Of a DNA stretch of 64,000 nucleotides, positions 23,602 to 48,739 are shown piece by piece (positions within the stretch are counted from its first letter, which is position 1; each line of letters starts with the position of its first letter). The DNA lies in contig JAUCBJ010001497.1 in NCBI GenBank assembly GCA_032718475.1, forward strand, positions 1 to 64,000, read 5' to 3'. The translations under genes and the position numbers were made by a program. Below the pieces are notes generated by a model, which was given only the letters and a program-made list of their open reading frames with translations, searched no databases and was not told the DNA's origin. Source of the DNA: Nemertoderma westbladi (lineage: Eukaryota; Animalia; Xenacoelomorpha).

Positions 23602-25289
23602 ACTACAACCAGGTTTTTGGCCCAAACATCTAATCTGTGAAGGATGGAGAGACAATTCGATTCGATTGTCGCTGACTCGTTTTCTAGTAGACCGAGTAGA
23701 ATTCTAATGAGGAACAACTACAAACAGCGGGTTTAACACTGGAGATCATAGTGGACCAGGTACCTCGGGAATTAAGGATAACCAGGATAGGATAAGTGAA
23801 TCAGTACATTTTAAACTCGCAACATATAACTAACTGCCAAGGACTTATTAACAATGAGGAGTATATAATGTCTCTGCTACACACATGTGAAATATTGGGC
23901 ATCCAAGAACATTGGCTAGATGGCTTAGAGGCTCGTGTACACCTAAAGGACTTTGACAAAGAATTTCAATGCGACTACTTTACTTAATTGGTAATAGAAT
24001 GTCAAATCCTAATAGGAAACGGGGTTCAGGAGGGGTCGCAATGTTTGTTAGGAAATCAATCATAAATGAAGTGCATCGCATAGACTCGGGAGATGATATT
24101 GTTGGATTCAAACTTCTGCCCAAACACACAAATCAGGAAATACTCGTCTTATCTGGATATGCTCCCGATTGCAGTAAGGGAGATACAGCTTATACGGAAT
24201 TTCTGAGCAGAATAGAATCTCTAAAATCAATATACTCCAATGCTGTCCCATACATTTAATGGATAGCAATGCAGACATCGGCGCAGGCCAAGGGCCAAGG
24301 TATTGCTGTAATCGTATAAAGCCAACTAAGAGAGGGAAGTTACTATTGAACTATATGGGAGAATCGGGTCTGACTGCGATTGATACCACAAATATATTTG
24401 ATGGCCCATGTATAACCTTCTATGGACATGGAAACACATGCATAGACCATATCTTAACCAACACGAGTGGCTGCGCCACATTTATTGACGGAAAAGTTAG
24501 CTGCCAGGAGACTGACTCAAACAGCTCGGACCACGTTCCTGTTACTGGTACCATTAAAATTAGGAAACACAGCAACACTCCAATAAAAATAACACCGTGG
24601 GAAAACAATTTTAAATGCCGCAAAAGACACTTACGCTTTAATTGGAAGAAATGTACATCCGAAGAGCTAGAAAAATACGCCAAATGAGTTGAAGATGGAT
24701 TGGACAACCTGAATAAGCGAATCACAGCCAACCCCTTAACTTGGGATTTTGAAACGATGAACTGTTACATGGACTGCTTTAAAGAAAATATTTTTGGGTC
24801 AGCAAACAGGCATATTCCGATGATACGTCCATGCAAACATAGTAGAAATCTTAGAGTTAGGGACTCCAGCCTAAAAGAGAAGTCAAAGGTGACAAAGAAT
24901 TTGTATACCATCTGGTGTAACCAAGGCAAAGATATGAATAACCCGATACATGAGTCTTACCTACAGTCAAAATGGTCTACTCGACGATTAAGAAACTGGT
25001 TGGCAAAGAAGAAGGTGATTAACAATCTCATTCATGGGTCTACTAACACTCATCAGGCACCATACAAGTTCTGGAAGTTTTTTTGGCAAGAAGTATCCTC
25101 AAGCAATCCCCCAATCTTGCAGGAAGACATAAGAAACCACATGGAAGGAAAGTTAAGCTCTGGCAATGACGGACAGGAACGAAATAACCTACGAACAAAG
25201 CTCAATGAATGGAAATATAATGCAACAGCTCCATCGATCTCTGAAAATTGGATAAAATCTGCATTCCTATCTCTGCCATTAGGGAAGAG

Positions 25290-25605
25290 TCTAAATCTCC
25301 GAAACCCTTTTATTTTTATAAAATTTATTACTTAGACTTACCTTTTCGGCGGACAAAATGTCCTATATTTTTCGTAATTTATGGGATAGCCTATTTCGTG
25401 CAATACTAACCGGAACCTGTAGTTACTGTATGGTTTGGTGTAGTTTTTCTTGTGGTAGTTGGGATTATGTAGCACTAAAATCGATTTGGAATTTTGGTTT
25501 TTTAATGGGCCTTAGTGCCTGAGTACTAACAGTGGCCCAAGTGGCCCTAAATGCTAGGTAGTATCTGAGGTAATAAGACCCCATGTCCTATTTTATTGTT
25601 TTCAT
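25290..25605. mobile_element. 316-bp non-coding insertion inside LINE ORF2
   Basis: Flanked by the 12-bp direct repeat ATTAGGGAAGAG (25278-25289 / 25606-25617); ORF2 reads LPLGKS|PDLDSL once it is removed. Confidence 0.85.
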
Positions 25606-27317
25606 ATTAGGGAAGAGCCCAGACTTAGACTCATTGACAGTTGAGCATATCCTCCACTTGCAGCCAACCACGATATGTCAATCAATGGAGAAAGTGCTAG
25701 CAGCAGCTCTTCACTTGGGCCGCCTACCACTATTGTTCGGCAACACCGTAATTAGCAGCCTATATAAGGGTAAGGGTAAACAGAGAAACGATCCCACCTC
25801 ATACCGACCTGTTAGTTCAATATGTATTTTTGCGAAGATGTTTGAATCAATCATCGTATACAGCACTATATGGGCAATGTGGATAGTGATGTCATACAGT
25901 GCCAAGAACAGGGCCTGATATGGTAATAGCAACGGTGCTAGAAATAATGGATTACTATCACCAGCAAGGATCAGGATTATATGTCTGTCAACTGGATATA
26001 GAAGGAGCCTTCGACAATGTGAATCATGTTACCCTCATCAGCAAACTGGCCAATACGCTCAATCCCTACATATCATTTACTCTTGCTGGACTACTATTCC
26101 ATTGGTCTTGCGTATTTAAAGTTCGGGACAGAAATCGACATAGATGGATTGATAATGACTAAGTGTATAAAACAGGGGTCACTGTTATCACCCTTATTAT
26201 TCAATTACTATATGAAGGGTTTATTCTGTGCTGTAAAGCAACAACAGTTGGGCTGTACTGTATATGGGATGTGGGCAGGGTGCATATCCTTTGCCGATGA
26301 CATTTTACTGTTGAGTACCATGCCCTCTTCAATAGAACACATGGTTGGAACCATCGAAACTGGTCGAACCTCCATAGGTCTACGAATAGAAAATTCAAAA
26401 ACGCACTGGATGAAAACAGAAGCAAATGGAAGAATACAACATAAACAGACATTTCTTCGCATTCTAGGGTCCCTGATAACATCTAAAAACATTATCACTT
26501 TTCTAGGTCATAAGCTATTTGCATCAAGCTCCTCCGTCAACTGCTTCAGAGAATGCCTGAAAGCCATAAAAATTTTGTCAGAAAGATTCCACAAGCTGGG
26601 ATGGAACTCGCGCTGGTGTATTGCTGAAGAAATTTCAAAAATATGGAATATATATGCATTGCCATCGCTACTATATACTTTCGTTTTCCTGACTGGTGGA
26701 TTAAGTGACAAACACTCTGCTCAACTTGATGCATATTATAGGAAAACTTTACGTGGCTTATTCATGGTTGGAAACTATGTCTCGAATGGATGTATCTACC
26801 ATCTGGTGAAAACAAATTCTATAAGTGCAGAAAGTTATAGAGCGGCCGCCGGTCTGATTATGCGCATTAAAAACTGCCCTATTATCCCTCTCCACTACAT
26901 TATACGGAGTCTAATCTGGCATTAGAGGAATGATGGTTCTAGGAACCGACATATTATGACTGCTGGCTCAGCATACTCAAAATGCGTCCAGTGTTTTCCA
27001 GTCCCACAGCCAATTTCCCTACTTAACCATGAATACTCAAACTCAAAGGATGTAATTCGTGGTTCAATAACCCATGTTCCTAATTGGATGGATATCATGA
27101 ACGCAAATTTTGTGGAGGACGTCTACAGCCTAAGATACTCAACATTTAGTTTCAAAGATCGTCGGATACGTGAATATTTTAATGTGTAAAGGAAATCGAA
27201 TATGCTCCAGGATGATGAACCACTGAACTTTAGAACTCCATTCGCGATACGGTACTAAGAGGTCCCCAGGTTTGCTGCATGATCGCCGTAACAACCCTTC
27301 TATCTTGAGAACTGACT

Positions 27318-28557
27318 GGACCATGGAACCCATTTTGGCACGAAGAAGGATAATTGAAGAATTATCAAAAAAGAAAGACAGGCATCTGGCTGTTATCTTT
27401 GTTGACTTCTTCAAGGCCTTTGATTCAGTCTCTCGCTCACGTATGTTCAGCATACTTTAATTATATGGGATTCCTGATGAAATTATTGCAGCAATCAGAT
27501 CAGTATACGATGGTTCGACAACATTTGTGTCTACTGTTGACGGTGACACAGAACCATTTGAAGTGTTATGGGGCGTCCTCCAAGGAGACACATTTGCACC
27601 ATTCGTGTTCATTATTGTGGTTGACTATGTTCTACGCATGTCCTTAGGTCATCATAATGATGATGGGGTGATAATAACTCCACCTACTGGCTCCAGAAGT
27701 CGAGGAAATCCTGCCAAGTACCTAACTGATCTAGACTTTGCTGATGACTTAGGAGTACTCTCAGAATCACTAGAGGGAGCCCAACGGCTCCTCAGCTCAT
27801 TAGAACATGCTGCTTCTAGTGTTGGTCTTTTTATTAACTCCAGAAAGACCAAAATTTTGACAGTTAACTTTGAAAGTCCTCAGCAAGTCTCTGATCGGAT
27901 GAGCATAAGCTCAAAGGATGGTATGCTTGAGCATGTGGACGACTTCTGTAACTTGGGATCATGGATCCGGAAGTCAGGTGAGGACCTTCGAATACGTAAG
28001 GGAAAGGCATGGGCTGCCTTGAATAGGCTTTCCAGGATTTGGAAGTCACCGAGAATTAATCGGAAACTTAAGGTCCGATTATTTAGAGCAGCAGAAGTTC
28101 CAGTACTCCTCTACGGGAGTCCATGCTGGGCTCTAACTGCTGAGGACACCAAATCTCTGGATGGCACATTCACAAGAATGCTACGCCGGGTTCATTGTGT
28201 CAAGTACAATGCACACATCTCCAACCAGACACTATATAACATTGGAGGTGTCTCATTGGTTCCCCCAAGCTTGACACTAGAACAAAATCGCCTCCGCTTT
28301 GCAGGACATTGCTTTCGCCGTGAGGACCAGCCAGTGCATAATCTTGTACTTTGGCAGCCTCATGGAGTGAATAAGCATGGTGGACAGCCCATGACTTTCT
28401 TGAGACGCATCTTAAAGGACACTGGCCTTGAAGATGCGGATGATCTATCAAATGTCATGGGTGATAGGGAGTTGTGGCGGTGCAATTTTGTTGACAAGCC
28501 GGCACAGCATTCTTAAAAATGCAGCTGCAATGCAGCATGCCGATCCTAGTAGTAGTA
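27318..28557 (+). mobile_element. 5'-truncated RTE-clade LINE
   Basis: RT ORF 27527-28516 is nearly identical to the 7.3-kb copy; (TAG)n tail; TSD GAGAACTGACT (27307-27317 / 28558-28568). Confidence 0.93.
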
Positions 28558-28849: not shown

Positions 28850-29505
28850 GACTACATAATTACATTATCAGCCTGTACTAATGGTGCACTACCGGTGTAA
28901 CTACATAAATACATTATCACTATGCACTATGGTGCACTGCCTGTGAGTAACTACATAAATACATTATCACCATGCTCTATGGTGCACTGCCAGTGTAACT
29001 ACATAAATACATTATCACCATGCACTATGGTGCACTGCCAGTGTAACTACATAAATACATTATCACCATGCACTATGGTGCACTGCCGGTGTAACTACAT
29101 AAATACATTATCAGCCTATACTAATGGTGCACTACCGGTAGGTGTAACTACATAAATACATTATCACCATGCACTATGGTGCACTGCCAGTGTAACTACA
29201 TAAATACATTATCACCATGCACTATGGTGCACTGCCAGTGTAACTACATAAATACATTATCACCATGCACTATGGTGCACTGCCGGTGTAACTACATAAA
29301 TACATTATCACCATGCACTATGGTGCACTACCGGTGTAACTACATAAATACATTATCACCATGCACTATGGTGCACTACCGGTGTAACTACATAAATACA
29401 TTATCACCATGCACTATGGTGCACTACCGGTGTAACTATACATAAATACATTATCGCACTGCCTGTGTGTAACTACATAAATACATTATCAGCCTTCACT
29501 ATGGT
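28850..29505. repeat. 48-bp minisatellite
   Basis: Tandem GTAACTACATAAATACATTATCACCATGCACTATGGTGCACTGCCAGT. Confidence 0.95.
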
Positions 29506-29797
29506 GTAAGGCAGATCTAACTATAGTATATTATATTAACTTACAGTAAAACTATAGATAATATTCATGCAACATTTAGGAAAAAATAGAGTTTCTTAAG
29601 GTGCAGTAAACATACATGGAATGGATACTTTTGGTTGGGTAAGTACATCAATTCTTAGACAAATACAATAAGTTCAAGTACTCAGTTTTATAGCACATCA
29701 ATTAAAACTCGCGATACTTAAGTAGTTTATTGAGCATTGAGCAGAAAACGACTCTAAACCACAGTTTTGCGAAAAGATGCCAGTACAAGAACGTGTA

Positions 29798-30010
29798 TTA
29801 GTCAAATATATCGTTTGACGCTCGGTTCTCGAAGTATTGTATAAGTAGGTTGACCTCTCTCTCAGTGCCAAGGTATAGAAATTCCTTGCAGTCCCGCAAT
29901 ATCAACAGCGTCCTAAGGTTCCTGATGAAATCGTTACTTTGTGGTGACACAAATCGCTTTCTGTGACCCAGGGGCAGCTGGTCATCCGTTATAATCTGTA
30001 GTCGCACCAT
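29798..30010 (-). CDS. Secreted helical-cytokine-like protein, coding exon 4 (last)
   Basis: Acceptor TTATAATTCAG; 70 aa plus stop, containing RTLLILRDCKEFLY; AATAAA at 29726-29731 on the minus strand. Confidence 0.8.
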   Translation of the reverse strand: MVRLQIITDDQLPLGHRKRFVSPQSNDFIRNLRTLLILRDCKEFLYLGTEREVNLLIQYFENRASNDIFD

Positions 30011-31547
30011 CTGAATTATAAAACGTGAGGTATATATATATACTAGAAAGCCAGCAAGCTGGCTGGAAGGAGCCCGGGGGAAAAATCCTAGCCAAGACTA
30101 TTACAAAGAACTATGTCAGTCAGCAGTAAGTAAACTAAAATTGTCTAAACTGCAAGGCGTGAGGCTAGCTGACTTTGTGGCTCGCCCCACATAATAAAAA
30201 ATGCAACTTAGCTACCACTAACAAAAATATAATATGAAGCAAATAATTTCATTATCAAGAACGTTTACAAGATATAAGATGCGATTACCGAATATTTATA
30301 AAAAATGCCCATGATGCACAACCAGATAAATAACAACGAATAGAGCCAAATAACAAATTTAGTTTCCTTCTATAGGTATTACCCCGTCGTCAAGCGGAAT
30401 ATCTCTTCCCAGTGAATTCTATGTGAATATGTAATATAGGTACTCCTTAGGCGGTAGGCCAGAGCGGGCTCCTTAAATACATGCAACTACTGTATTATAG
30501 TGTAGGTCAACTATAAAACATTTTGCAATCCACAGTGAGTATCGACTGCAATAGGACACAACACACTGCTTTGTGTAACTAAAATTCATTCTCCTGATCC
30601 ACCCCCTAACATAGCAGAGTGAGTAAGTAACCTTATTGTAGATATACCCTTAGGAAGCACTGGGAGAGCAATCAGCTTATGGGGTAATACATTAGAAACC
30701 AACAGCTTATGTGTGAGTAAACATTGCCTTTCCTTATAGCCTACTAGTAAAACTTGGCAACCAACACGTTTTTCTATGACTGTGTATAACATATTAAGCC
30801 ATATTTCATCATGAACACCAGCTGTTATTTTACCATTGCTTTTAATTTCGCGACAAAACAATGTCAAAAAATTAAATATATCGAATACCACACATAGAAT
30901 CGATCTGAAATTTTGTAACGCGATTATGAACCACCAAAGCAATGTACTTGCAAAATTTAATCAAAATCGCCAGGCAGGAAGTGCCTTAACCTAGATAAAT
31001 GTCAGTCAGTCAGTATGTCAGTCAGTGTAATGTATCCTGAGATTTTTTACAGAAAGTATCCCTGAGATTCTTACAGTAAGTATCCCGCTGTCAAGCGGGC
31101 TCCTAATTATAAGAATGCGTTTAAGAGCATTTATAAATAGAAAATAAGAAATTAAATTCTTAACGTAATTAATTAAAGTTAATATATATATTTAATTCTT
31201 TTACAGAAGTGTTTCAATGGGATACCGGCGAAAAATAAAAATTCCGGTTCCGAAACTGACTTTTTGGAAATGGGATCAAATTTGGAATCTTGATAAAAAT
31301 CTGCTCTAGGTGAAATATCAAAAAATATTTGAAAACATTTCTAAGCCCCCATCCTTAATATAAGCCTAAAAGATTCTCCCATTCATTACCCGTATAATTA
31401 ACCCACATGCTATCTCGAGGGGATGATTTCAATCACTCGAATCAGAATATTATTTTATAATCTTGCGATTTAAATAATTGAACGAATTAATAGAAAAAAA
31501 TAATTAAAATTTAAATATTGGTATATATTGTTAAGTATATAACTTAC

Positions 31548-31715
31548 AACGTTAGTGAAAGCTGCGAGAATTGCGTCAAGTTTGAGTCGAACTCGATCGA
31601 GGCCATCTAATACGTCTTGAACTTCACCGTAGCGTTCATGAACTGAATGGAGCTGTAGTACTATATCGCTGTATCTGAATAGCTCTGCATGATTTACTAA
31701 CAGTTGGTGTTTTAT
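31548..31715 (-). CDS. Secreted helical-cytokine-like protein, coding exon 3
   Basis: TTTTCTGTTGCAG acceptor, GTAAGT donor, 168 nt = 56 codons: IKHQLLVNHAELFRYSDIVLQLHSVHERYGEVQDVLDGLDRVRLKLDAILAAFTNV. Confidence 0.82.
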
Positions 31716-31749
31716 CTGCAACAGAAAAATCAATAAACACTTAGAGAAC

Positions 31750-33253
31750 ACTTGAGCGGAAAAGGTGGCCAGTCTTTTACTTGAGCAGAAAAGGTGGCCA
31801 GTATTTTACTTGAGCAGAAAAGGTGGCCAGTCTTTTACTTGAGCAGAAAAGGTGGCCAGTCTTTTACTTGAGCAGAAAAGGTGGCCAGTCTTTTACTTGA
31901 GCAGAAAAGGTGGCCAGTCTTTTACTTGAGCAGAAAAGGTGGCCAGTCTTTTACTTGAACAGATAAGGTGGCCAGTCTTTTACTTGAGCAGAAAAGGTGG
32001 CCAGTCTTTTAGTTGAGCAGAAAAGGTGGCCAGTCTTTTACTTGAGCAGAAAAGGTGGCCAGTCTTTTACTTGAGCAGAAAAGGTGGCCAGTCTTTTACT
32101 TGAGCAGAAAAGGTGGCCAGTCTTTTACTTGAACAGATAAGGTGGCCAGTCTTTTACTTGAGCAGAAAAGGTGGCCAGTCTTTTAGTTGAGCAGAAAAAG
32201 TGGCCAGTCTTTTACTTGAGCAGAAAAGGTGGCCAGTCTTTTACTTGAGCAGAAAAGGTGGCCAGTCTTTTACTTGAGCAGAAAAGGTGGCCAGTCTTTT
32301 ACTTGAACAGATAAGGTGGCCAGTCTTTTACTTGAGCAGAAAAGGTGGCCAGTCTTTTACTTGAGCAGAAACGGTGGCCAGTCTTTTACTTGAACAGATA
32401 AGGTGGCCAGTCTTTTACTTGAACAGAAAAAATGGCCAGTCTTTTACTTGAGCAGAAAAGGTGGCCAGTCTTTTAGTGGAGCAGAAAAGGTGGCCAGTCT
32501 TTTACTTGAGCAGAAAAGGTGGCCAGTCTTTTACTTGAGCAGAAAAGGTGGCCAGTCTTTTACTTGAGCAGAAAAGGTGGCCAGTCTTTTACTTGAGCAG
32601 AAAAGGTGGCCAGTCTTTTACTTGAACAGATAAGGTGGCCAGTCTTTTACTTGAGCAGAAAAGGTGGCCAGTCTTTTAGTTGAGCAGAAAAAGTGGCCAG
32701 TCTTTTACTTGAGCAGAAAAGGTGGCCAGTCTTTTACTTGAGCAGAAAAAATGGCCAGTACTTGAGCAGAAAAGGTGGCCAGTCTTTTACTTGAGCAGAA
32801 AAGGTGGCCAGTCTTTTACTTGAGCAGAAACGGTGGCCAGTCTTTTACTTGAACAGATAAGGTGGACAGTCTTTTACTTGAGCAGAAAAGGTGGCCAGTC
32901 TTTTACTTGAGCAGAAAAGGTGGCCAGTCTTTTACTTGAGCAGAAAAGGTGGCCAGTCTTTTACTTGAACAGATAAGGTGGCCAGTCTTTTACTTGAGCA
33001 GAAAAGGTGGCCAGTCTTTTAGTTGAGCAGAAAAAGTGGCCAGTCTTTTACTTGAGCAGAAAAGGTGGCCAGTCTTTTACTTGAACAGATAAGGTGGCCA
33101 GTCTTTTACTTGAGCAGAAAAAATGGCCAGTCTTTTACTTGAGCAGAAAAGGTGGCCAGTCTTTTACTTGAGCAGAAAAGGTGGCCAGTCTTTTACTTGA
33201 ACAGATAAGGTGGCCAGTCTTTTACTTGAGCAGAAAAGGTGGCCAGTCTTTTA
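31750..33253. repeat. 29-bp minisatellite (intronic)
   Basis: Tandem CTTGAGCAGAAAAGGTGGCCAGTCTTTTA, about 50 copies. Confidence 0.97.
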
Positions 33254-33713
33254 CCGTCTTCTACAGGAAACTGGTAGGCCTATAATGTATCGGGATGGTT
33301 TTCCATTGCACCCTTGATATTATGTAATCCATTACATTAATAGTACATCAAATTCATATATAACCCATGATATAGATAGTATGCTCTCTATTGTTTTGGA
33401 GACATACCGACGGACAGACCGACAGTTAAACCGACATAGAGAGATATGTCGAAAATTAAAGTAATCTTGCTAAATGGTTTTCAAACTTTGAATCTTGATA
33501 GAATTCTGCTCTAGAAAAAATTGTAAATAAATGCCACAATAATATAGTAAATACCACAATAAATGCCACAATAGTAAAACGCAAAAACGTAAAACGCAAA
33601 ATAAAACGATTTATTTATGACTTTTATAAAAGGAACTTAAATGAAATATTAAATTATGGTTTGGTCTATAACTTCGATTAGTATCGGTATCACTTTATGG
33701 TCTATAAACTTAC

Positions 33714-33845
33714 ATCGTTAGGTAAGAACGGTGAAGATTCGTGGGTTTCTATGAATGACTCGGTAATGTTATGAGGCGTAACCTTAGGGGTGTAATTCAA
33801 TGTGAGATCCGTGTCAATAGATTCCCTTGGAAACCACCTGGATTT
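33714..33845 (-). CDS. Secreted helical-cytokine-like protein, coding exon 2
   Basis: TTTTTGTTCCAG acceptor, GTAAGT donor, 132 nt = 44 codons: KSRWFPRESIDTDLTLNYTPKVTPHNITESFIETHESSPFLPND. Too short to appear in the ORF track. Confidence 0.78.
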
Positions 33846-34068
33846 CTGGAACAAAAATAATATCATTAAATGTTAACATCAATAATAAATAAGTGAAATG
33901 GGAATTTAACTTAGTAAAGGATTCAGGGGTTAAGGGAGAAATTGGAATATTGGAAAGTTGGTGCTTTCTTTGGGAACAAGGAATTTATGTTTAATTGTTA
34001 TAATTAAATTATCGGAAGTAATATTTTACTTAATCAATGTAAATAAAACAATCAGAATCAAGTTTAAC

Positions 34069-36845
34069 GGCCCATGTGAAGAATACCAGACTTTCTGCTG
34101 TTATATTTCACTTTACAGTTACCCCCATGTGAAGAATACCAGAATTTCTGCCGTTATATTTAACTTTGCAGTTACCCCCATGTGAAGAATACCAGACTTT
34201 CTGCTGTTATATTTCACTTTACAGTTACCCCCATGTGAAGAATACCAGAATTTCTGCCGTTATATTTAACTTTGCAGTTACCCCCATGTGAAGAATACCA
34301 GACTTTCTGCCGTTATATTTCACTTTGCAGTTACCCCCATGTGAAGAATACCATACTTTCTGCCGTTATATTTCACTTTGCAGTTACCCCCATGTGAAGA
34401 ATACCAGACTTTCTGCTGTTATATTTCACTTTACAGTTACCCCCATGTGAAGAATACCAGAATTTCTGCCGTTATATTTAACTTTGCAGTTACCCCCATG
34501 TGAAGAATACCAGACTTTCTGCCGTTATATTTCACTTTGCAGTTACCCCCATGTGAAGAATACCAGACTTTCTGCTGTTATATTTCACTTTGCAGTTACC
34601 CCCATGTGAAGATACCAGACTTTCTGCCGTTATATTTAACTTTGCAGTTACCCCCATGTGAAGAATACCAGACTTTCTGCCGTTATATTTCACTTTGCAG
34701 TTACCCCCATGTGAAGAATACCAGACTTTCTGCCGTTATATTTCACTTTGCAGTTACCCCCATGTGAAGAATACCAGACTTTCTGCCGTTATATTTCACT
34801 TTGCAGTTACCCCCATGTGAAGAATACCAGACTTTCTGCCGTTATATTTCACTTTGCAGTTACCCCCATGTGAAGAATACCAGACTTTCTGCCGTTATAT
34901 TTCACTTTGCAGTTACCCCCATGTGAAGAATACCAGACTTTCTGCCGTTATATTTCACTTTGCAGTTACCCCCATGTGAAGAATACCAGACTTTCTGCCG
35001 TTATATTTCACTTTGCAGTTACCCCCATGTGAAGAATACCAGACTTTCTGCCGTTATATTTCACTTTGCAGTTACCCCCATGTGAAGAATACCAGACTTT
35101 CTGCCGTTATATTTCACTTTGCAGTTACCCCCATGTGAAGAATACCAGACTTTCTGCCGTTATATTTCACTTTGCAGTTACCCCCATGTGAAGAATACCA
35201 TACTTTCTGCCGTTATATTTCACTTTGCAGTTACCCCCATGTGAAGAATACCAGACTTTCTGCTGTTATATTTCACTTTACAGTTACCCCCATGTGAAGT
35301 ATACCAGACTTTCTGCCGTTATATTTAACTTTGCAGTTACCCCCATGTGAAGAATACCAGACTTTCTGCCGTTATATTTCACTTTGCAGTTACCCCCATG
35401 TGAAGAATACCAGACTTTCTGCCGTTATATTTCACTTTGCAGTTACCCCCATGTGAAGAATACCAGACTTTCTGCCGTTATATTTCACTTTGCAGTTACC
35501 CCCATGTGAAGAATACCAGACTTTCTGCCGTTATATTTCACTTTGCAGTTACCCCCATGTGAAGAATACCAGACTTTCTGCCGTTATATTTCACTTTGCA
35601 GTTACCCCCATGTGAAGAATACCAGACTTTCTGCCGTTATATTTCACTTTGCAGTTACCCCCATGTGAAGAATACCAGACTTTCTGCCGTTATATTTCAC
35701 TTTGCAGTTACCCCCATGTGAAGAATACCAGACTTTCTGCCGTTATATTTCACTTTGCAGTTACCCCCATGTGAAGAATACCAGACTTTCTGCCGTTATA
35801 TTTCACTTTGCAGTTACCCCCATGTGAAGAATACCAGACTTTCTGCCGTTATATTTCACTTTGCAGTTACCCCCATGTGAAGAATACCAGACTTTCTGCC
35901 GTTATATTTCACTTTGCAGTTACCCCCATGTGAAGAATACCAGACTTTCTGCCGTTATATTTCACTTTGCAGTTACCCCCATGTGAAGAATACCAGACTT
36001 TCTGCTGTTATATTTCACTTTGCAGTTACCCCCATGTGAAGAATACCAGACTTTCTGCCGTTTTATTTCACTTTGCAGTTACCCCCATGTGAAGAATACC
36101 AGACTTTCTGCCGTTATATTTCACTTTGCAGTTACCCCCATGTGAAGTATACCAGACTTTCTGCCGTTATATTTAACTTTGCAGTTACCCCCATGTGAAG
36201 AATACCAGACTTTCTGCCGTTATATTTCACTTTGCAGTTACCCCCATGTGAAGAATACCAGACTTTCTGCTGTTATATTTCACTTTGCAGTTACGCCCAT
36301 GTGAAGAATACCAGACTTTCTGCTGTTATATTTCACTTTGCAGTTACCCCCATGTGAAGAATACCAGACTTTCTGCCGTTATATTTCACTTTGCAGTTAC
36401 CCCCATGTGAAGAATACCAGACTTTCTGCCGTTATATTTCACTTTGCAGTTACCCCCATGTGAAGAATACCAGACTTTCTGCTGTTATATTTCACTTTGC
36501 AGTTACCCCCATATGTGAAGTATACCAGAATTTCTGCTGTTATATTTAACTTTGCAGTTACCCCCATGTGAACAATACCATAATTTCTGCTGTTATATTT
36601 CACTTTGCAGTTACCCCCATGTGAAGAATACCAGAATTTCTGCTGTTATATTTCACTTTGCAGTTACCCCCATGTAAAGAATACCAGAATTTCTGCTGTT
36701 ATATTTAACTTTGCAGTTACCCCCATGTGAAGTATACCAGAATTTCTGCTGTTATATTTCACTTTGCAGTTACCCCCATGTGAAGAATACCACACTTTCT
36801 GCCGTTATATTTCACTTTGCAGTTACCCCCATGTGAAGAATACCC
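34069..36845. repeat. 53-bp satellite array (intronic)
   Basis: Tandem CCCATGTGAAGAATACCAGACTTTCTGCCGTTATATTTCACTTTGCAGTTACC, about 52 copies. Confidence 0.97.
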
Positions 36846-37916
36846 GGTTTTCATCAAAAACAACAGGTTACAGAAGGGCTTAATCTAACCAAAACAATAA
36901 ACTAATTAGTATCTGTACAGGTTATAAGACAGAAATAAGCGCTATAAAACACTTAATAAAGATAAATTTAAAAAAATAAGAAATCTTTAAAATTCCAATA
37001 AAAAGTCGACCGAAAAGTGAAATCCTGGTATTCTTCTCATGGGCGAGTTTATCCATCATATCATAAGTCGTTACAAATTAACTCATTATTTCCATTATTA
37101 TCCCTGCCTGTCCGTGTTAATCATTATAGACTTAATGAATAGGAAATAATAATAGACTTTGTTATAGGGGGATTAGTGTCCGCTATACAAGGGACAAGAT
37201 GGGCCTAGCTATACCACAACTACCCCAACAATACATTGACTTAAAGTAGTTTTTATGGCATATTTATCCAGTGCTACTTGCTTGCGTGTTGTGTGACACA
37301 ACCTAAGACTCGAGCATATAAACAATAAAGGGAAATTTTATCACATCAACCAAACAAAGAGGGTTTTATTTCGCAAACATGATCAATATTATAAGCATCA
37401 TGGACTAAACCTAAAGGGAAATTCCTACTATCTCAATCCTATCCAGGGGATTTTAGGGGACAACTGAAGGAACTCTCCTGACTTAAATTACACCACCTGC
37501 TCTTAGTATATGGGGAACTCTGCTGTGTAAGGCCCAAACTTTCCACACAAATGATATTCACTTTATTCATGATTTATAGTAGCGCTACCTACCCAGCCCA
37601 GCCCTGATGCATAGAAATTTACATAGACAAAACAATGTGCGACCATAACTCCTCCTGTTGTTATAGTCCTCGACAACGTTGTGTTACTTAATAACTGTTA
37701 GTATAATGACATCGCAATGAATCGGTCTCTCTTATAACAGTTACATTGGTGCTAAGGGTGCCTAACGTACAACCTAATGTAACACGACGTGGTCTGTAAC
37801 CCGATCTTCTGTAAATTGATCTCTTGTAACAATTCTGAAACCTGGTATTCTGTAAATTTATCTTCTGTAACTGTAACCAGATCTTCTGCAATCTGAACTT
37901 CTGTAACTCTATATTT

Positions 37917-38784
37917 GAAGGGGGTAACCCCCCCCCCCCCCCCCATACGTTTTTTTCTTATTTTGTACATGTCTCCAATGTGGTTAAAAAATGTGTAGAA
38001 AACGATATACCAGCGAAAAGAGAATCATCAAAAGTACATAAATATTAGAAATACAATTTTTGGCGCCCCCTTGCGGCCTGCGTGAGATTGAAAAATTTCG
38101 CTAAGAAGACTAACTCCTCCGTTATTTCCCATTTTTATTTTCCGATACCACATTTTTTGGAACCAGCATGTTCATTTTCATAATATTTTTTTCACGCTCT
38201 GTTTGTGTTTTCGTTTTCTATTTCTGATAATTGGCAATTTTGTAAAAAAAATAGGGAACAGAACTAAAAATAACCATGTTTTCTTAATTTTTCATTCAAA
38301 AATGGGAAGATATTATTAAATTAAGAAAATTGCGTGAAATTACTTTTCATATAAAGCAAAAATTGCAAAAAACGGTTAAGAAATGAAGGAGAAGTAGTAT
38401 TTTTCGTGCGGAAAAATGTCATTCTGAGATAATCACCATCAAAGTTCAAACCTTCCCGCGCAAAACTGCCTGTATGGGGTCTGGTTGGTTAACAGTGTCC
38501 GACACCGACATGAAGGAAACACACCACCGAGCTAAAATTATATTTATTGGGGTTTTCGGGGTCGTTGATTCCATTTTCAATGTCAGTTTTATTATTTGGT
38601 GCAATCTGTCCGTCTGTCGGTTGTCTTACAGACAGATTGGCAGACAGATATTCAACGATAACTCGAGAACTATAATAAATCTCTCTAAACCATTTTGATA
38701 TTTGAAATCGCCATTAAATTCTGCTCTAGAATGAAAAAAAAATTTCTAAAATTTTTAGCGAGGGTGGAGTGCTACCCCCCTTAA
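37917..38784. mobile_element. Possible non-autonomous DNA element (MITE-like)
   Basis: Short inverted ends AAGGGGGTA / TACCCCCCTT(AA). The internal motif ATTCTGCTCTAGAA recurs near 33500 and, as a variant, near 31300. Confidence 0.4.
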
Positions 38785-39849
38785 AAGCCAACCTTCTGTA
38801 ATCTGACCTTCTGTGCCTTCTGGCCTTCTCTCTCCTACCTACCTACCCAGTTGAGTCTGCGTATATTCATTTATTATTACAGCACTCCCACAATACCAAC
38901 ACAGGTGAATTACATCGCGAAATTGTGTAAGTATAAGCTCAAGTGGTTTGTTTATTGTATTTTTGTTTATATCGGTAAGCAAACCACCAAGCACAGGATT
39001 TTATATTTTAACACGAACGTGTTAGTATGAGTGGATTGATGGAGGTGAGTTGGAAAGATGCAGGAGACCAGTTGGAAAGCCGAAGCTTGATAGCTTGATA
39101 ACCTTAGCCGTCTTTCTGAATCTTTATTGTCAGTAAGCAGTAACCGTATAGCTTAGTTTATATCTAATCACTGCACTACTGCACGCAAGATTATGCATGA
39201 GATCCCTGTAGGTATACATATCAAATATTAGAGCAAGCCCACCCCTTCCCCCCTAAACCTATGACTTAGAAATACGGACGTGGGAGTGAGAGCCAAGAGG
39301 ATAATGTAAATTACCCCAACATCGATGCGCCTATAATCCGGTAATGATGCAACAATTATTCCGGATGCGCAGAGAACTACAATGACCCAATGAAATATAG
39401 GTTTATTTTTTGGGCAGCGAATTCAGTGGGAAATGCCCAACTCCCACGCAAGTGCGTCATAGCTTTTTGTCCGTCCCTTCATGTGGTATTATTTAATTTA
39501 GGCGTCAGGTGTTGCTTAACTCAAATTATCATTATGATTTATTATAATTAACATTATGATGGATATCATTATTATTATCATCATTCATGATATAAAAAAT
39601 TGTATGTTAAATACTGCATGTTAAAACCATATATAAAAAATATAACACAATGATTTGACTTTATAGTCAAATCGTAATGGTAGTTCGAGATTAAAGCCAC
39701 CACTTTAAAATAAGTTGAGCAAATAAGTTTACTCTATTGCCGCTCCGCGGACAAAAGCAGACACTTCTCCTGCGCTATCTGTAATGACAAGTAACTATTA
39801 TGGCTTTACGATTTTAAAATTTTAATGTTCATTTTAACATAATAATAAT

Positions 39850-41200
39850 ATCACCATGAGTGAATTAATATAAAGCCCTTAGGGTGCCACATGGCTTTTA
39901 TGCAATCAAATTCGTATTAAAATCCTCATCTTTCGAAATTGTGGTAATGCAATTGTTTGAATTCAATGAAATTGTTGGCTTGGCCCAAGTGAAGCTGCCT
40001 TTTACTTCAATAAACGTCACTTAATGAATGGCTTATCTTGTTATTACTCTATTGCTAATGGAATGGAGTCAAAACCTAGAGTAAGAGGTGAGGGCGGAGT
40101 GGCTATGCTAATTAAAGATTGCCTTATTAGTAACATTAGCTGGATCAAAACTAATTCAGATCGTATTGTTGCAGTCAATATCAAGGGAATGTTTCGCAAA
40201 AATATTACAGTGATTGGGACGGGACCTACGGACGGGACGGGACGGGGGACGGGACGGGGGACGGGACGGGGGACGGGACGGGACGGGGGACGGGACGGGA
40301 CGGGACCTACGGACGGGACGGGACGGGAGACGGGGGACGGGGCCTTCAGCATGTGGTAATGAAGAAGATAAGACTAAATACCTGAAGACGTGCGCCTCAC
40401 ACTCAGTTCTTCACCGTGATTCTACAGATGCAGGGGCTAAAACTATAATAGAAGGTGACATTAATTGCGATATTTCCGCAGGAAGAAATCCTCAGTTACC
40501 AAAAGTAAGACATATTGATTCCTTGACTTAGAGACAACCGGGGAATCTTCGCTCACAACTAGTCCAAAGACGTCACATCGTTTCAGAGCAAAAGAAGGTA
40601 TTATTATCCGAACTTCTCTTATAGATCATATACTAACCTCTCAAACTCTCTTGGCATACCTCAACTCAAATCTATTTTACTTTCAGTAATAAGAATTCAT
40701 CAGACCATACCACCGTTTTTTCACATTTTACACTCAAGGCAGACGGATCGAATAATTCGGATCGAATAACGCAAATGCAAATATTTGGAGTAAAAGCAAG
40801 CATCCTATCTACCAGTTCAACATGGCTACCAAAGAGCAACTAGAAAACTATCAGCTAGAACTCTCATTAAACCTGACCACCAGTTGTGCAGCTTCAAAAC
40901 TTATTGACACTAAAACAAATGCTGCTCGAAAGTTTGTACATACCAAAGATTAACCCAAGGAAACATAGGCTTCATCCACCAAACATGGTTGCGCAAATAC
41001 GGGATTAAATCGGCTTAGGGAAGTTGAATATTGCACAACCAATAATGCCTAGATTAGAATCAATGATTGCACACTTCAATTATAGAAGGAAAAATCACTA
41101 TCTAAGAGGAAAATACAAAATAACTAGCTGCAAACTGCCGATCTAATCAAATCAACCAAAATTTGGGTCTTGGACGTCAATTAAAGGTTGAAAGAAGAAT
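39850..41200 (+). pseudogene. Decayed LINE APE endonuclease fragment with (GGGAC)n insertion at ~40216-40342
   Basis: RGEGGVAMLIK..SDRIVAV, IEGDINCD, IDHILTS and SDHTTV motifs across broken frames. Confidence 0.75.
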
Positions 41201-41229
41201 AAAGATACCAGATACCTTTGTTTTCTATT

Positions 41230-42295
41230 ACGTAGGTATATATATACACATATATATGTTTATTGACCCTAAGTTTGATTAAATGGCAGATAATTAAGCA
41301 AGCAGAAATTTAATTTACTTTTACAAATTGACTCTCCCGTAACTTGAATGAGATCGGACATTCTCGCAACACATAATTCTGTTTGTAACGATTTATTGTC
41401 GCAACCACAGACTCTTTGATCACTAGGGGTCCTTCACCCCCTACCCGTCTAAGCTATGGGAGATGACCCTAATTCTCGTAAACCATACATGTACTGTATG
41501 TAATCAGGTACACTCTTTGATCACTAGGGGTCCTTGACCCCTTGCCCGTCTCTATTCTTAAGCTATGGGAGATTACCCTAATTCTCGTAAACCATACACT
41601 TATGTTGTAATCAGGTAGAAATGGTTTCGAAATACGATATACAGGGTGAGGCACTAAATCCTTATTGATGTCCGTTCGATAAGTAACAAACTTGGTTGCA
41701 GTATCAGGCTTGCTATTTATCCTATTGCGTACTTCCCTATTGCGTACTTCCCTATTGCGTACTTCAATAAGTTTGTTTACATTTTGTTGCCCATTATTTG
41801 CTTCCATTAATAACCGGTATCCAGGCGTATTTGCTTGCCTGCCTACATAACTCAAAAACCTGTGTAAATGGGAGTTCAGTATCCTGATTTATCAACATCT
41901 TACTTATAAATCTTTTCCTAGCACGTGAAATTAAGTACTTCATGGGTGGTGCTCCTACTTCTACCAAACAAATATCCGTGGGGGTTTGAGCCCTAACACC
42001 AAGAATACTTTTCACCATCCTGGTATAATATTGTTCTATTAGACTGGTGTCACTCGTTAACCATTTCTGATCCATATATACGAGGCCAAATAATCCTGCA
42101 GCATCAAATTTTTTAATTGCAAAAGGTAGACTTGTGTTTGTGCTCGTAAAAATGTTAAATTTATTGACAGTTTCTCCACACTTAAGCCGGTGATGCTTAA
42201 GAGTACACTGAACCTTCCCATCAACACAAAATGGTACTCCCAAATATACATAAACCGCACAATAATTTACAACTAAATTATTAATAGTCAATGGC
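41230..42295 (-). mobile_element. LINE ORF2 3' fragment related to the 53.7-58.2-kb family
   Basis: YVYLGVPF..ILGVRAQTPTDICLVEVG..TRIRVISHSLRIETG parallels YIYLGSP..LLGVRPTTCGDICLIELG..SRFRLGSHNFPVE. Confidence 0.8.
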
Positions 42296-42329
42296 GCCTA
42301 GACTAACCTAGACTAGGGTTAATAACAAA

Positions 42330-42650
42330 AAATTTAGTGTTTTTTTTATTAATTCCCAATTCACATTACCGGCAAGGTACAGGCGCCATTAGGTCATACT
42401 ATCATCTTATCAGAACGCCTGCTTTACTTTTCCCCCAGCAAAGCCATTATACCGCTGGGTTGGACAAAGCACTAAAGTCTAAATCCTCTAAATTCCTTAA
42501 GGACACATCAGTGCGAAATTTATACAGCCTTTAGTAGGATTTGAACCTGCGGCGCTAAACACTATTGTCAAAGCGGTTCAGGCGCTGTACCGTATTCACT
42601 CGGACACTGGGACACTGGGACACTCGGACACTGGGCCACTCGGACACTAT
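42330..42650 (-). mobile_element. Probable tRNA-derived SINE in the first coding intron
   Basis: Minus strand has reiterated A-box-like AGTGTCCGAGTG/GTGGCCCAGTG, B box GGTTCAAATCC (~42537-42547), and a downstream CCAACCCAGCGGTATAATGG SINE-body-like motif. Confidence 0.55.
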
Positions 42651-42687
42651 TGGAACTATAATATGTTAGAAATAAAAATATACTTAC

Positions 42688-42870
42688 AAGTTCTTCTATA
42701 AATTCTTCCAATTGCCTTATCAATGTCGATGTTAACCCGTCCAGAGAATTCAGCAGCTGTATAGGCGTTTGTACGATGTAATCTTCTGGTTCATCCACTT
42801 GTCGTCGCACCACAAAAGATTGCGCTTGTAACACAATAAGGAGTGCTGCTACCACAGCCAAGTGCGCCAT
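42688..42870 (-). CDS. Secreted helical-cytokine-like protein, coding exon 1 (signal peptide)
   Basis: ATG at 42870 lies 8 nt after the acceptor TTTTGCTTCAG; MAHLAVVAALLIVLQAQS is signal-peptide-like; 183 nt = 61 codons; GTAAGT donor. Confidence 0.85.
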
Positions 42871-43609
42871 TTGTCTTCCTGAAGCAAAATATATTGTCAA
42901 CATTGTATCAGAAGCGAACGATACACAGTCGGAAAAGTATAAAAATGAGAATTGAAAAAAGAAAAAAAAAAGAAAAATTTATATTTATGCTTTAATATAT
43001 TTAAAATAACAGTTTATTATATTTATTAAAATCAAAATTTATCAAAATGCGAATGTGCTTGAGCCTTGGTCTAATCGAAAACGTTAACTTTATTTAGAAA
43101 GGTTTGGGAACTTTAGAGTTTCGACCATTAGTGTAAACAATCAATCGATTTACATAAAACACATACATCAGAATCTTCTTATTGTATATCGGTAATCCAT
43201 CATTGCGAAATGAATATAACAATGATGGACGGACCCTTTTATAAGTTGACAATCATTACAAATAGGACCAACCAGCTGGTGTAGAGTGAGTATTGTATCA
43301 TTGCATTCGAGGGGTTGGGATTAGTGATAAAATTTAATTCCACAAAAGAAAATTATTGATATTAGGCATGTGAACAAACGTCCTTCAACAATCAATCTCT
43401 CAACAAAATTTCAAACAGTGATAAGATCTTTAAGTCAAACCAGTTACCTACCATATACAATCTTAGTAGTTTAGGTCTCATATTTGATATATTTTTTATC
43501 GACTTATCGCGATACTTTCATTATCTTCAACAGTAGAGTTCGTTTCAGAACGGAATAATATACTTTTCATAGTGTAATTGGCATTTAACTTTTAATCTGC
43601 CCTGTATTC

Positions 43610-44050: not shown

Positions 44051-45917
44051 CATCAACGGTTTTGCATGGTTATTGTACCGGTACTATGGAGTACAAAGAA
44101 TGCGGAATATTGCCTTTTTACCATTAGACTATTTACAAACCCCAGACGGAATAGATTCAGATGTATACAAATAGTTGTCAGACTAAGTCTGTAAAACAAC
44201 TTCTGCTAGGCAAAGGCCATGTTTCTATGACTAATATGAACATAGACAATAGGCATAGACCTCATTTGGCTCCGTTCTAACTTGGTAGTTCAGTAACCTA
44301 TGATAAGACGAACCTACCACACCCGGATTGCTTTCCAGATCTTTTATTTCTTATATTTAAATGTTGCTACAGGTATAAGGACTTGGGGTGATGTTTTGAC
44401 CCCATCCCCACCCATAATTAACGAAAAAATAATTATTTATTTAATTACCTGGGAAATATATAACTTTTTTTCACTATTCTCGAGGCATTTTATTTACCGA
44501 GCGTCAGCGAGGTTAATAAAGGGTCGAGAGAATATTGAAAAAATGTATATTGTATATATAGTGTTACAAAATATATTGAACTGCAGTATTTTACTATATT
44601 GCTTCCATAGTTACTGCAATTCAAATTACTGTACTCATCGACTCCTGATGTTGCCTTACTCAATGTTAAATAATTTAGATTTTCTAAAAAATATTTAAAT
44701 TTACTTTTTACGCCGGGAAAAAAATTAAAACCAATGCAATCCTATGGGTTACTTTTTCTCCCGATTTTGGAATCTTAATATTAAATAATAAGAATATAAA
44801 TTTTTATAATTTAATTTTCACGAAATTTCAAGACTTGTCATTAATCTGCTAATTTTCTTCAAAGGTTTTACGAATGCTAATTCGGATTGCGTCGAAAGTT
44901 CCCCCCTCCCCCTATCTGCCATTTTGACCCATCCATAAACCGTGGGTTAAATAGGCTTAGGGGCATAGCTGTAGAGAAGAACTCTATAGAGTTTTTTTTA
45001 TTGAGGGTCTACGTGCAAAAACATGCAAGGCCTATCGAATTAATAATTTACATTTAGTGCGGCCGCGATCTATAATTTCTCACGAAACAGATACGGTAGC
45101 CTTAATCTAATGAATGGCGATAAAACTAAACTAAACTCACTTCTGAAAGGATTGATTTTTAAAATGATGTTGTTCGATAGACTGACAGCTTTCTTCCTAT
45201 CTTCCTTTTCCTTCTAGTCGGATTCTGCGAACACGAATTCTGATGTCACTGATGGGATTCCAACGAATTAAATTTACAATATTTGAAAATATGATTAAAT
45301 ATTTAACTTGAAAAATGTAATCTGGATAAAAGGCAAAGATTACATAAATAAATTTGTAAACTTCTAAATTTATATCCAAAGGATCTTCCATTTTGTAGGA
45401 ATCTACCCAACTCCCACGCAAATGAATATCACCAATCACGGCTTGGCAAGCTATGACAGTAAACCAATGGGCATGTTCGCTTCCCAGCCCTCACAGCTGT
45501 GCTATCCTTGAGCTTCGAGTGATACTTACTTGTGACATCACAAGGGAAATTTGATTAACCCATTGTACATGCAAGGATGTGAATAACTTACTTTGTAGGC
45601 TTACCTTATGCTACCTACAAAAAGTTTCCCAGTAGACACCCAGTAGTGTTTGTCTGACAAAAATAAATTAACTGCTTCCCGGCCAGACTTATTTCGTGTC
45701 TATGTATGTAGTTATCTTAATAAGAGTAAAAAATTACAATACAAATTTGTTATACATCTATAATCATGTTTTCTTATATTTTTACTTGGAAATTTTCAGA
45801 ATTTATAAATTTTAGCTGGGAAGGCGGTTCACTCAAAGACCACACTCAATGGTGTATGTCGTACGTGTCCATGGTTGGTTTGCCTACTATAACAGTATAT
45901 ACCACCATGAAGTATTT

Positions 45918-45967
45918 AGTACTCTGCGTTGATACCACTGCTTAAGCAGTGGTATCAACGCAGAGTA
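45918..45967. other. Library adapter artefact (SMART / ultra-low-input PCR adapter, back to back)
   Basis: AGTACTCTGCGTTGATACCACTGCTT immediately followed by AAGCAGTGGTATCAACGCAGAGTA. Confidence 0.97.
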
Positions 45968-47270: not shown

Positions 47271-48512
47271 TCAAATCGAACTGATACCATATTCATCCTC
47301 CATCATCTTCATATATGCCGCTACAGCTGCCTTGCGGTACACACCCATAGCCATACTAGAGTCTTTGTGCTTAGCTGTCAGTTCCATTAACATTCGATCA
47401 ATTCTATTTTCATCATCACACAAATATATAAAACACTTTACTTTATTCGCGTTTGTTTTAATTGAATTTTTATCTAAGCAGTCGGAATTTATTCGCTTTT
47501 TAGTTTCTCTAAATACTTTTAATTCTCTCTCCATTCTCTCAAAACCAAATATTTCTATTTTATCCCAAAGTGTTTTATTGAAGTGTTTGTAAAGTTTCCA
47601 ATCTCCGATATTTATATTTCTGAGTTTTTCTGTATCAAAAATATCCAGTTTTTGATTTTGCACACCTTTACTCCTATAAACGACGTCTTCAAATTCCCAA
47701 CACATTAAATCTTTCAACAAAATCATCGATTCGTCAAAATATTCCAATAAAATCACCAAATCAAATTCCTCATCAATCTCTTTTATAATATCATCATAAT
47801 CACTATCATTGGGTGAATTTACATTATAGCCGAATTCGTATAACAAAGGATTTAAAAACGACCTATAATTGAGCATAGTGCCATTTGGATTACTAATGAA
47901 ATATTCATAAATATCTTTTGTAGTATTGAGTGCTAACTCATTTGCGTCACGAAAATTTGAATATGGAGCATAATAAGTCATGTAGGATTTGATGACATTT
48001 GAAGGGTCACGAATTCCAACAATATACATGGTATCTGGTGGCATCAACTTTTTTACATCAATGTTAAATTTTCCGTGTAGAAATGAAACATTAGGATGTT
48101 GTGTGAACTGGTTTAAATGTTCGCCCCACCAGTAACTCCATTGCCGACCTCTACATTTCGCAAATGATTCTTCATCGGACAGAGCGGGTGTTAGATTGTG
48201 ATTAATAGCGTGATTAATAATCACAGAAACTGTGGTACGGGACCCAGTTCGGTGGGTCTTCAAGTAAAAAACATTCATTTTCGTTTTGCAACTTCCATTC
48301 AATTGTGTCACATTTGTTTCATTCTCTTCCACAAAGTTTTGAGCCGTAGTATACATTTGCATTCCTACTGAACTATAAGATATATTGTTGTCCAATTGTT
48401 TCACATACTTGTACACAAGTATAAGCATTGCTATAAGTATAAGCATAAAAGTGGATAAAGTTAATTTTCGAAAAGTCACATTATTGAGGTACATGTTTCG
48501 TTCCATACACAT
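47271..48512 (-). CDS. Galactose-3-O-sulfotransferase (GAL3ST/cerebroside sulfotransferase) family, type II membrane protein; uninterrupted CDS
   Basis: N-terminal TM (TLSTFMLILIAMLILVY), 5'-PSB FYLKTHRTGSRT, 3'-PB IRDPSNVIKS, FDLVILLEYFDESMILLKDLMCW, DWKLYKHFNKTLW. First ATG is at 48512; the true start is uncertain. Confidence 0.92.
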   Translation of the reverse strand: MCMERNMYLNNVTFRKLTLSTFMLILIAMLILVYKYVKQLDNNISYSSVGMQMYTTAQNFVEENETNVTQLNGSCKTKMNVFYLKTHRTGSRTTVSVIINHAINHNLTPALSDEESFAKCRGRQWSYWWGEHLNQFTQHPNVSFLHGKFNIDVKKLMPPDTMYIVGIRDPSNVIKSYMTYYAPYSNFRDANELALNTTKDIYEYFISNPNGTMLNYRSFLNPLLYEFGYNVNSPNDSDYDDIIKEIDEEFDLVILLEYFDESMILLKDLMCWEFEDVVYRSKGVQNQKLDIFDTEKLRNINIGDWKLYKHFNKTLWDKIEIFGFERMERELKVFRETKKRINSDCLDKNSIKTNANKVKCFIYLCDDENRIDRMLMELTAKHKDSSMAMGVYRKAAVAAYMKMMEDEYGISSI

Positions 48513-48739
48513 AAATTCGAGCAATGGAATCAATCATAAAGTATTATATGGTTTAAAATTCGAATGAAACTTAGAAATTTATTATTTAATTTATTTAATT
48601 GTCAACAAACTAAATTGCAACTGAGACCAGATCAGTTGACAACAGTCATTTGATATGGCCTATACATTGTTGCTACCAGTAAGTACACCTGTAGAACGGT
48701 GTGAATATTTAGGGCATATCTTTCATAGTTCAACTTGTG

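Follow-up and report, generated by a model that had tools for sequence, protein, structure and literature searches.

A four-exon gene of Nemertoderma westbladi as a candidate long-chain class I helical cytokine

Do four short exons scattered over 13 kb of the genome of Nemertoderma westbladi form one gene, and does this gene encode an IL-6-like helical cytokine, as proposed in an earlier note? The window analysed here is the first 64,000 nucleotides of contig JAUCBJ010001497.1 (assembly GCA_032718475.1). Our preferred reading, given a probability of about 0.6, is that the four exons encode a ligand of a Domeless/gp130-type receptor, a long-chain class I helical cytokine but no orthologue of IL-6.

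The four exons lie on the minus strand and join into one open frame of 231 codons, uninterrupted by any stop or frameshift. The first coding exon (42688..42878) holds 8 nt of 5′ UTR and residues 1-61 (coding part 42870-42688, 183 nt), with the signal peptide at about residues 1-18 and predicted helix A starting at about residue 38. It is followed by an intron of 8,842 nt (33846..42687) containing a 53-nt tandem array and decayed pieces of retroelements. The second coding exon (33714..33845, 132 nt, residues 62-105) corresponds to a predicted long AB loop with five prolines, and the next intron (31716..33713, 1,998 nt) is for the most part a 29-nt tandem array. The third exon (31548..31715, 168 nt, residues 106-161) carries predicted helices B and C, separated by a turn of two residues and free of proline. 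After an intron of 1,537 nt (30011..31547), the last coding exon (29798..30010, 213 nt) encodes residues 162-231 and a TAA stop, comprising the predicted end of helix C, the CD loop (about 166-186), helix D and, at the C-terminus, a further helix or tail. All three introns are in phase 0, begin with GTAAGT and end with a pyrimidine-rich tract and CAG. Re-derivation from the sequence thus returned the coordinates, splice sites, phases and length given in the earlier note, and splicing of the four exons into one transcript is predicted. No second copy of the gene was found in the window.

Several elements at the ends of the gene add to the earlier description. A predicted core promoter upstream of the coding exons consists of a TATA box (43236..43243, minus strand) and an initiator (43213-43208); this pair, at 43243/43213, is the only TATA and initiator combination with a spacing of 18-26 nt on either strand of the window. 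A non-coding first exon is predicted at 43167..43211, ending at a donor at 43166, the one site resembling a donor in a scan of 337 nt, and an acceptor is located 8 nt 5′ of the main ATG. Inspected by eye for upstream ATGs, this exon contains an upstream ORF of 11 codons, and once spliced it would place a new ATG, out of frame, 10 nt 5′ of the main start. Were the predicted 5′ intron retained, an ATG in frame would be available at 42903. A predicted polyadenylation signal, AATAAA, is found at 29726..29731 (minus strand), about 70 nt 3′ of the stop. The 2 kb upstream region held none of the consensus sequences TTCN3GAA, TTCN4GAA, NF-kB, AP-1 and CRE, and ATTTA was absent from the first 300 nt past the stop.

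That the gene is not expressed in this form, being a chance chain, a wrong set of exons, a recent pseudogene or a mis-join from an amplified library, is in our view very unlikely. GTAAGT occurs 21 times in the window (7 on the plus and 14 on the minus strand), and of 17 acceptor-donor pairs only two are symmetric, in phase 0 and open, namely exons 2 and 3. A complete chain of first, two internal and last exons was found once, as the gene under study; none of 300 windows simulated with a Markov model contained one. The test flatters the chain, since its criteria were fixed with the exons already known; at least two internal exons alone appeared in 18 of the 300. A genuine gene is also favoured by three consensus donors in a row, their exons open and compatible in frame, and by the promoter pair and the AATAAA at the expected ends. 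Codon bias gave a mixed result: the exon score was matched by 27, 2, 0 and 8 of 64 null stretches for exons 1 to 4, respectively, and the coding frame ranked best of six only in exon 3. The missing codon signal in exon 1 favours the non-expressed alternative, as do the upstream ATGs that the predicted 5′ exon would add and a dimer of the library amplification adapter 3 kb upstream of the gene (both adapter matches in the window lie at 45922-45965), which shows at least one artificial join in the assembly. Against this, the gene itself has no copy of the adapter and no disrupting mutation of its frame. Because of the join the neighbouring gene is unreliable as synteny. A Pfam scan of the 117 open stretches of at least 55 aa between 20.7 and 52.7 kb gave retroelement domains, a sulfotransferase and one weak match below the cut-off only. 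Neither TOMM7 nor any other IL-6 neighbour was among them, in a scan which short exons would escape and whose upstream side is cut by the adapter join.

The N-terminus of the encoded protein is hydrophobic (Kyte-Doolittle mean of 2.09 over 19 residues from residue 3) and no second hydrophobic segment follows (maximum past residue 25, 1.42), so that by hydropathy a signal peptide and no membrane anchor are indicated. Cleavage is predicted near residue 18, leaving a mature protein of about 25 kDa with a pI of 5.1, which judged from its sequence is likely secreted and probably glycosylated. An amphipathic stretch, as claimed for the helix of the first exon, was recovered at residues 43-66 by a hydrophobic moment of 0.52-0.56 at 100 degrees. 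Likewise, the richness in Pro and Thr described for the loop is evident from a Pro/Ser/Thr content of 36% in exon 2, with the NIT sequon at residue 87 and a further sequon at 78. Leu makes up 14.6% and Pro 4.2% of the residues, and the only cysteine, C202, is in predicted helix D.

Helices are predicted at residues 38-64 (A), 107-134 (B), 137-165 (C) and from 187 (D). Every proline lies either in the N-terminus or in one of the two loops predicted to be long: none of the nine mature prolines falls in the three helical spans covering 124 of 213 residues (P = 3e-4, for spans chosen partly after inspection of the sequence). For exon 3 alone, single-sequence AlphaFold2 returned a confident helix-turn-helix (107-134 and 137-159; mean pLDDT 85.4, pTM 0.61), as expected from the two helices noted there. 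Proline placement and this two-helix model both support the arrangement of helix A, long loop, helices B and C, loop and helix D, in which each exon carries one unit. The loop and last helix assigned to exon 4 fared less evenly; a loop of 21 residues is indicated by proline placement, whereas the model of exon 4 alone (pLDDT 46) has helices at 187-199 and 211-227 with a break instead of one long helix D. At the a/d positions, hydrophobic residues fill 6 of 8 in both A and B, 9 of 9 in C and 4 of 6 in D. Amphipathic 18-mers numbered 4 against a shuffle mean of 3.55, and at least 4 were reached in 1026 of 2000 shuffles, which is no excess. The predicted crossover loops, AB with about 40 residues and CD with about 21, are long enough to permit an up-up-down-down topology.

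A likeness to IL-6 at residue level is found in the last exon, the place expected for helix D. Compared by eye with the human IL-6 helix D peptides printed in two papers, which bear out the sequence given in the earlier note, residues 187-206 (29876..29935, minus strand) are identical at 10 of 20 ungapped positions (N187, T195, L197, I198, L199, R200, K203, E204, F205 and L206). The likeness stops at L206 and reaches further upstream than first noted, to F189, which in this by-eye alignment falls on Trp157, the site-III hot spot of IL-6; the candidate would thereby have the aromatic site-III residue at the start of helix D that characterises the gp130 family. The hand-scored BLOSUM62 sum of 49 corresponds to an E of ~9e-5 when last exon is compared with last exon; against 50 whole cytokines taken as a panel, E is 0.057. 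For 2,500 trials, binomial estimates range from 0.0002 to 0.09, and in a proteome-wide search such a score would be expected by chance (E ~59-73). The match is only suggestive.

With respect to family membership, the length of 231 aa is within the 150-280 aa given as criterion i for long-chain class I helical cytokines (PMC13081863). Three phase-0 introns in the mature domain separate predicted helix A, the AB loop, helices B and C, and helix D, as in class I cytokines. Members of this class have four helices of 20-30 residues. Introns of the IL-6 domain are in phase 0 and fall between these units. According to PMC13081863, the IL-6 domain is interrupted by three introns, and the signal-peptide intron is sometimes missing from IL-6 genes. 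Phase 0 and a signal peptide are in themselves unspecific, since 132 all-phase-0 genes in lamprey yielded 14 short secreted proteins and one helical interferon, as a preprint reports. Pfam and PDB sequence searches with single exons or parts returned no cytokine, and no relative appeared in the databases searched with these queries. Unpaired gave no Pfam match with single exons, where profile sensitivity is low on pieces of 30-70 residues, and no cytokine fold was matched in searches with the hairpin only, too little to tell topology. Lamprey IL-6 is likewise described in PMC13081863 as having no BLAST match. The signature of IL-6, G-CSF and MGF, a Cys-x9-Cys preceding helix B, is absent, and in place of two or four conserved Cys the protein has C202 alone. 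Of the proposed IL-6-like cytokine, the long-chain helical part is retained as more probable than not; IL-6 orthology is not supported.

Two other identities for a real protein were weighed. It might be secreted, helical and lineage-specific without being a cytokine, for instance a lipid carrier, a protein with a structural or defence role, or a precursor whose cleavage at RR 22-23 and at RKR 178-180, inside the predicted CD loop, releases a C-terminal peptide. The resemblance to IL-6 would then be a chance match of two leucine-rich amphipathic helices, but three coincidences would be needed (the long-short-long loops, the one-to-one mapping onto exons, and a helix D match with the site-III aromatic in register), and we regard this explanation as unlikely. 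A class II helical cytokine of interferon or IL-10 type, with two helices in the last exon, appears highly improbable. Such cytokines have five or six helices and either five exons with phases 0-0-0-0 or four with 0-0-0. The latter form, described for lamprey interferons in a preprint, fits the exons found here, and the weak exon 4 model shows two helices. Conversely, a loop of 21 residues with two prolines precedes the first of these helices, which itself resembles IL-6 helix D, and the same preprint reports that it detected no interferon-like fold among non-chordate invertebrates.

If the preferred reading of a long-chain class I cytokine is correct, the 231-codon frame would yield a secreted protein with a predicted four-helix bundle of the IL-6/IL-11/G-CSF type. 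By analogy with the IL-6 family, one receptor chain may be contacted at its cytokine-binding module by site II, formed by helices A and C, and a second chain by site III, made up of the start of the AB loop and F189 at the helix D tip; the paired chains would turn on JAK and STAT. A role as ligand of a Domeless/gp130-type receptor is purely inferred. G-CSF assembles with its receptor in a 2:2 stoichiometry that involves no alpha chain, and a complex of this kind is our guess for the candidate. A further and more doubtful suggestion is that this non-insect invertebrate ligand shares a common ancestral gene with the vertebrate IL-6-family cytokines, the exon layout, part of the helix D sequence and the site-III aromatic being left intact. 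Were that so, site-III receptor pairing would be older than vertebrates, and the helix D motif with the phase-0 layout would offer a handle for finding the missing invertebrate ligands of Domeless/gp130.

Drosophila Unpaired 1-3 are Domeless ligands (PMC7378365; preprint 10.64898/2026.10.26.761873), and shrimp Vago4 was named as another in a 2026 preprint. IL-6-family cytokines were in 2025 reported from jawed vertebrates only (PMC12284397), and lamprey and hagfish members were added by a structure-guided search in a 2026 preprint (PMC13081863). Among the titles and abstract openings covered, with subscription journals mostly outside, no IL-6-type four-helix ligand was found for other invertebrates. 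A growth-hormone-like protein of amphioxus and a fly 'helical factor' have reportedly been described. If its fold holds, the candidate would give an ancient receptor a concrete ligand that can be tested, with residue-level likeness to IL-6 where none was expected.

The candidate resembles vertebrate IL-6 (PMC7378365, PMC13081863, PMC3271213) in size, signal peptide, three mature-domain introns, AB and CD loops predicted to be long and a BC turn predicted to be short, and a helix D stretch identical at 10 of 20 positions in which an aromatic stands opposite Trp157. It differs from IL-6 in having one cysteine against two or four and no IL-6/G-CSF cysteine signature, in the lack of database-level similarity of its single exons or parts, in the 25 residues which follow the end of the likeness at 206, and in the absence of TOMM7 and other IL-6 neighbours from the stretch scanned. 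With IL-11 (fish IL-11a/b; PMC3271213) it shares richness in Leu and Pro, the lack of the IL-6 disulfides and a cysteine in predicted helix D, where one is described for fish IL-11. It is cysteine-poor like the lamprey cardiotrophin-2-like candidate (PMC13081863). Unlike the basic halibut IL-11b (pI 9.67) it is acidic, and no sequence match to IL-11 was found. Unpaired proteins, at about 400 aa, are considerably longer, and they are basic. The candidate is set apart from them by the lack of a Pfam or sequence match for its single exons and by its vertebrate-type exon layout, and is like Unpaired 1-3 in its proposed role as a secreted invertebrate ligand acting through a gp130-like receptor and JAK/STAT.

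The candidate gene lies on the reverse strand and consists of four exons of 183, 132, 168 and 213 nt (42870-42688, 33845-33714, 31715-31548 and 30010-29798). Its introns each run from GTAAGT to CAG and are all in phase 0, as is the rule for class I cytokine genes, and the exons join into one open frame of 231 codons, exactly as an earlier note had described them. Counting both strands, GTAAGT occurs 21 times in the window; a simple filter let through 17 acceptor-donor pairs, and the only two that were symmetric, in phase 0 and open were exons 2 and 3. One first-internal-internal-last chain, the gene itself, was found in the window versus none in 300 order-3 Markov simulations, 18 of which contained two internal exons alone. 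These statistics are strong but not exact, since the filter was chosen with the exons already in view. A test of codon bias, with the long frames of the window itself as training set, gave mixed results, the null stretches reaching the exon score numbering 27, 2, 0 and 8 of 64 for exons 1 to 4. No second copy was present within the 64-kb window. The chain very probably represents a real hidden gene, with splicing and expression predicted.

The ATG has an acceptor 8 nt upstream. The sole pair of TATA and initiator on either strand of the window is at 43243/43213, with one donor-like site (43166) between it and this acceptor, and a short non-coding first exon is therefore predicted, giving five exons in all. 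By eye, this exon contains an 11-codon upstream ORF, and its splicing would place an ATG out of frame 10 nt ahead of the main start; either these features would dampen translation, or the 5′ model would be wrong. If the 5′ splice does not occur, the frame extends by 11 residues to an ATG at 42903. At the downstream end, AATAAA is found at 29731. The 2 kb upstream of the gene contained three TTCN2GAA sites and no TTCN3GAA, TTCN4GAA, NF-kB, AP-1 or CRE consensus, and no ATTTA occurred within 300 nt downstream of the stop.

Two copies of one oligonucleotide (26 and 24 nt) stand back to back at 45918-45967, outside the gene and 3 kb upstream of it, and are identical to the PacBio ultra-low-input amplification adapter printed in 10.1101/2023.02.05.527185. 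This adapter dimer is an assembly artefact and an artificial join, likely chimeric. What lies on one side of it therefore need not be a true neighbour of what lies on the other, and this applies to an intact, single-exon galactose-3-O-sulfotransferase family gene of about 408-420 codons (47271-48533, reverse strand, Pfam E 3.6e-53). Among 1,321 candidates only two relatives of this gene were found at E 1e-8, with 29-30% identity, and the one that is named comes from the annelid Owenia. A segment of 85 nt at 45530-45614 (reverse strand), on the same side of the join as the candidate gene, is flanked by an acceptor-like site and a GTAAGT donor and is closed in all three frames; it might represent an additional non-coding 5′ exon.

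The remainder of the window consists of retroelements and tandem arrays. An open frame of 1,027 codons (54728-57811, reverse strand) reads by eye as a LINE ORF2 with endonuclease and reverse transcriptase; next on this strand comes a frame of 333 codons that resembles ORF1 (53763-54764), an unexpected order. Non-LTR copies of different types, mostly broken, occupy 11757-15391, 18591-21277, 23957-28516 and 7224-8397 on the forward strand, another lies at 5619-6380 on the reverse strand, and three frames at 25.9-28.5 kb match RVT_1. Five homogeneous minisatellite arrays (92-98% matches), two of them within introns of the gene, have units of 48 nt (28851-29455), 29 nt (31750-33254), 53 nt (34071-36844), 31 nt (48740-49115) and 43 nt (49536-50534). 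In intron 3, 30053-30409 closely matched two short contigs of run X1 and is probably a repeat common to the organism of that run. CpG observed/expected was 0.77-0.84 outside the arrays; vertebrate genomes are depleted far below this. Together with the distant sulfotransferase relatives, this ratio suggests that the DNA probably comes from an invertebrate lacking close kin in the collections searched.

Hydropathy gave a single N-terminal hydrophobic segment, in keeping with the signal peptide proposed earlier, and none later of membrane strength. The predicted mature protein has a mass of about 25 kDa, a pI of 5.1, 14.6% Leu and one Cys (202), with sequons at 78 and 87. Prolines occur at 28, 36, 67, 81, 85, 100, 103, 174 and 184 and nowhere within 38-64, 107-165 and 187-224 (P = 3e-4, for spans partly picked post hoc), and Pro/Ser/Thr content is 36% in exon 2 and 5-16% in the others. 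Exon 3 modelled alone from its single sequence gave the two helices previously suggested, 107-134 and 137-159 about a two-residue turn, at pLDDT 85.4 (85, 85, 84, 72 and 60 over five models), and this hairpin matched generic hairpins only. Exon 4 alone gave helices 187-199 and 211-227 at pLDDT 46, too weak for use, and amphipathic windows showed no excess over shuffles (1026/2000). The predicted pattern would comprise four helices, with a 40-residue loop after the first, a turn between the second and third, and a 21-residue loop ahead of the last.

The human IL-6 helix-D motif given in the earlier note is covered by tryptic peptides printed in 10.1101/2025.02.07.637157 and PMC11203838. Aligned ungapped with this portion of IL-6, residues 187-206 are identical at 10 of 20 positions (N187, T195, L197, I198, L199, R200, K203, E204, F205 and L206), and F189 stands opposite Trp157, the site-III hot spot for gp130 domain 1 according to PMC7378365. 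Beyond L206, where the likeness ends, the sequence continues with G209 and a charged run. BLOSUM62 sums by hand were 49 for 187-206 and 34 over the 17 residues of the first IL-6 peptide. Karlin-Altschul values were 9e-5 for last exon versus last exon, 1.1e-3 for whole versus whole, 0.057 against 50 cytokines and 59-73 against a proteome or the PDB, the last being why database searches miss the match; binomial estimates ranged from 0.0002 to 0.09 (2,500 trials). Given the independent layout the match is suggestive, but no proof.

We read the product as a new long-chain helical cytokine of an invertebrate, secreted and of class I, with a probability of about 0.6. The IL-6-like identity proposed before finds partial support in the predicted loop and helix layout and the suggestive helix-D match; the IL-6 cysteine signature, as described in PMC3271213 and PMC13081863, was tested and is absent, and the product is for this reason not filed as IL-6 proper. 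The main rival, and a less probable one, is a secreted helical protein that is no cytokine, or a peptide precursor. Exon-by-exon searches found no relatives of the predicted protein, a blank expected under both readings because lamprey IL-6 was invisible to BLAST and found by its fold (PMC13081863). A class II cytokine appears highly improbable, even with lamprey interferon genes of four exons and phases 0-0-0 in existence (10.64898/2026.05.30.728932). That no real gene exists in the proposed form is likewise highly improbable. No invertebrate IL-6-type ligand was found in the literature by title or abstract start, and the supplements of two 2026 preprints, on an invertebrate fold screen and on intron phases, may bear on novelty.

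If the fold holds, this candidate cytokine would work like an IL-6-family ligand. Judged from the sequence, the signal peptide would be cleaved near residue 18 and the AB loop glycosylated, and the partial prediction suggests a four-helix bundle that would hold without disulfides. Purely by analogy, site II (helices A and C) would contact the cytokine-binding module of a Domeless/gp130-type receptor and site III, around F189, a second receptor chain, and pairing of the chains would activate JAK and STAT. An up-up-down-down bundle requires long-short-long loop spacing, according to PMC7378365 and 10.1101/2025.02.07.637157, and this is the spacing predicted for the gene.
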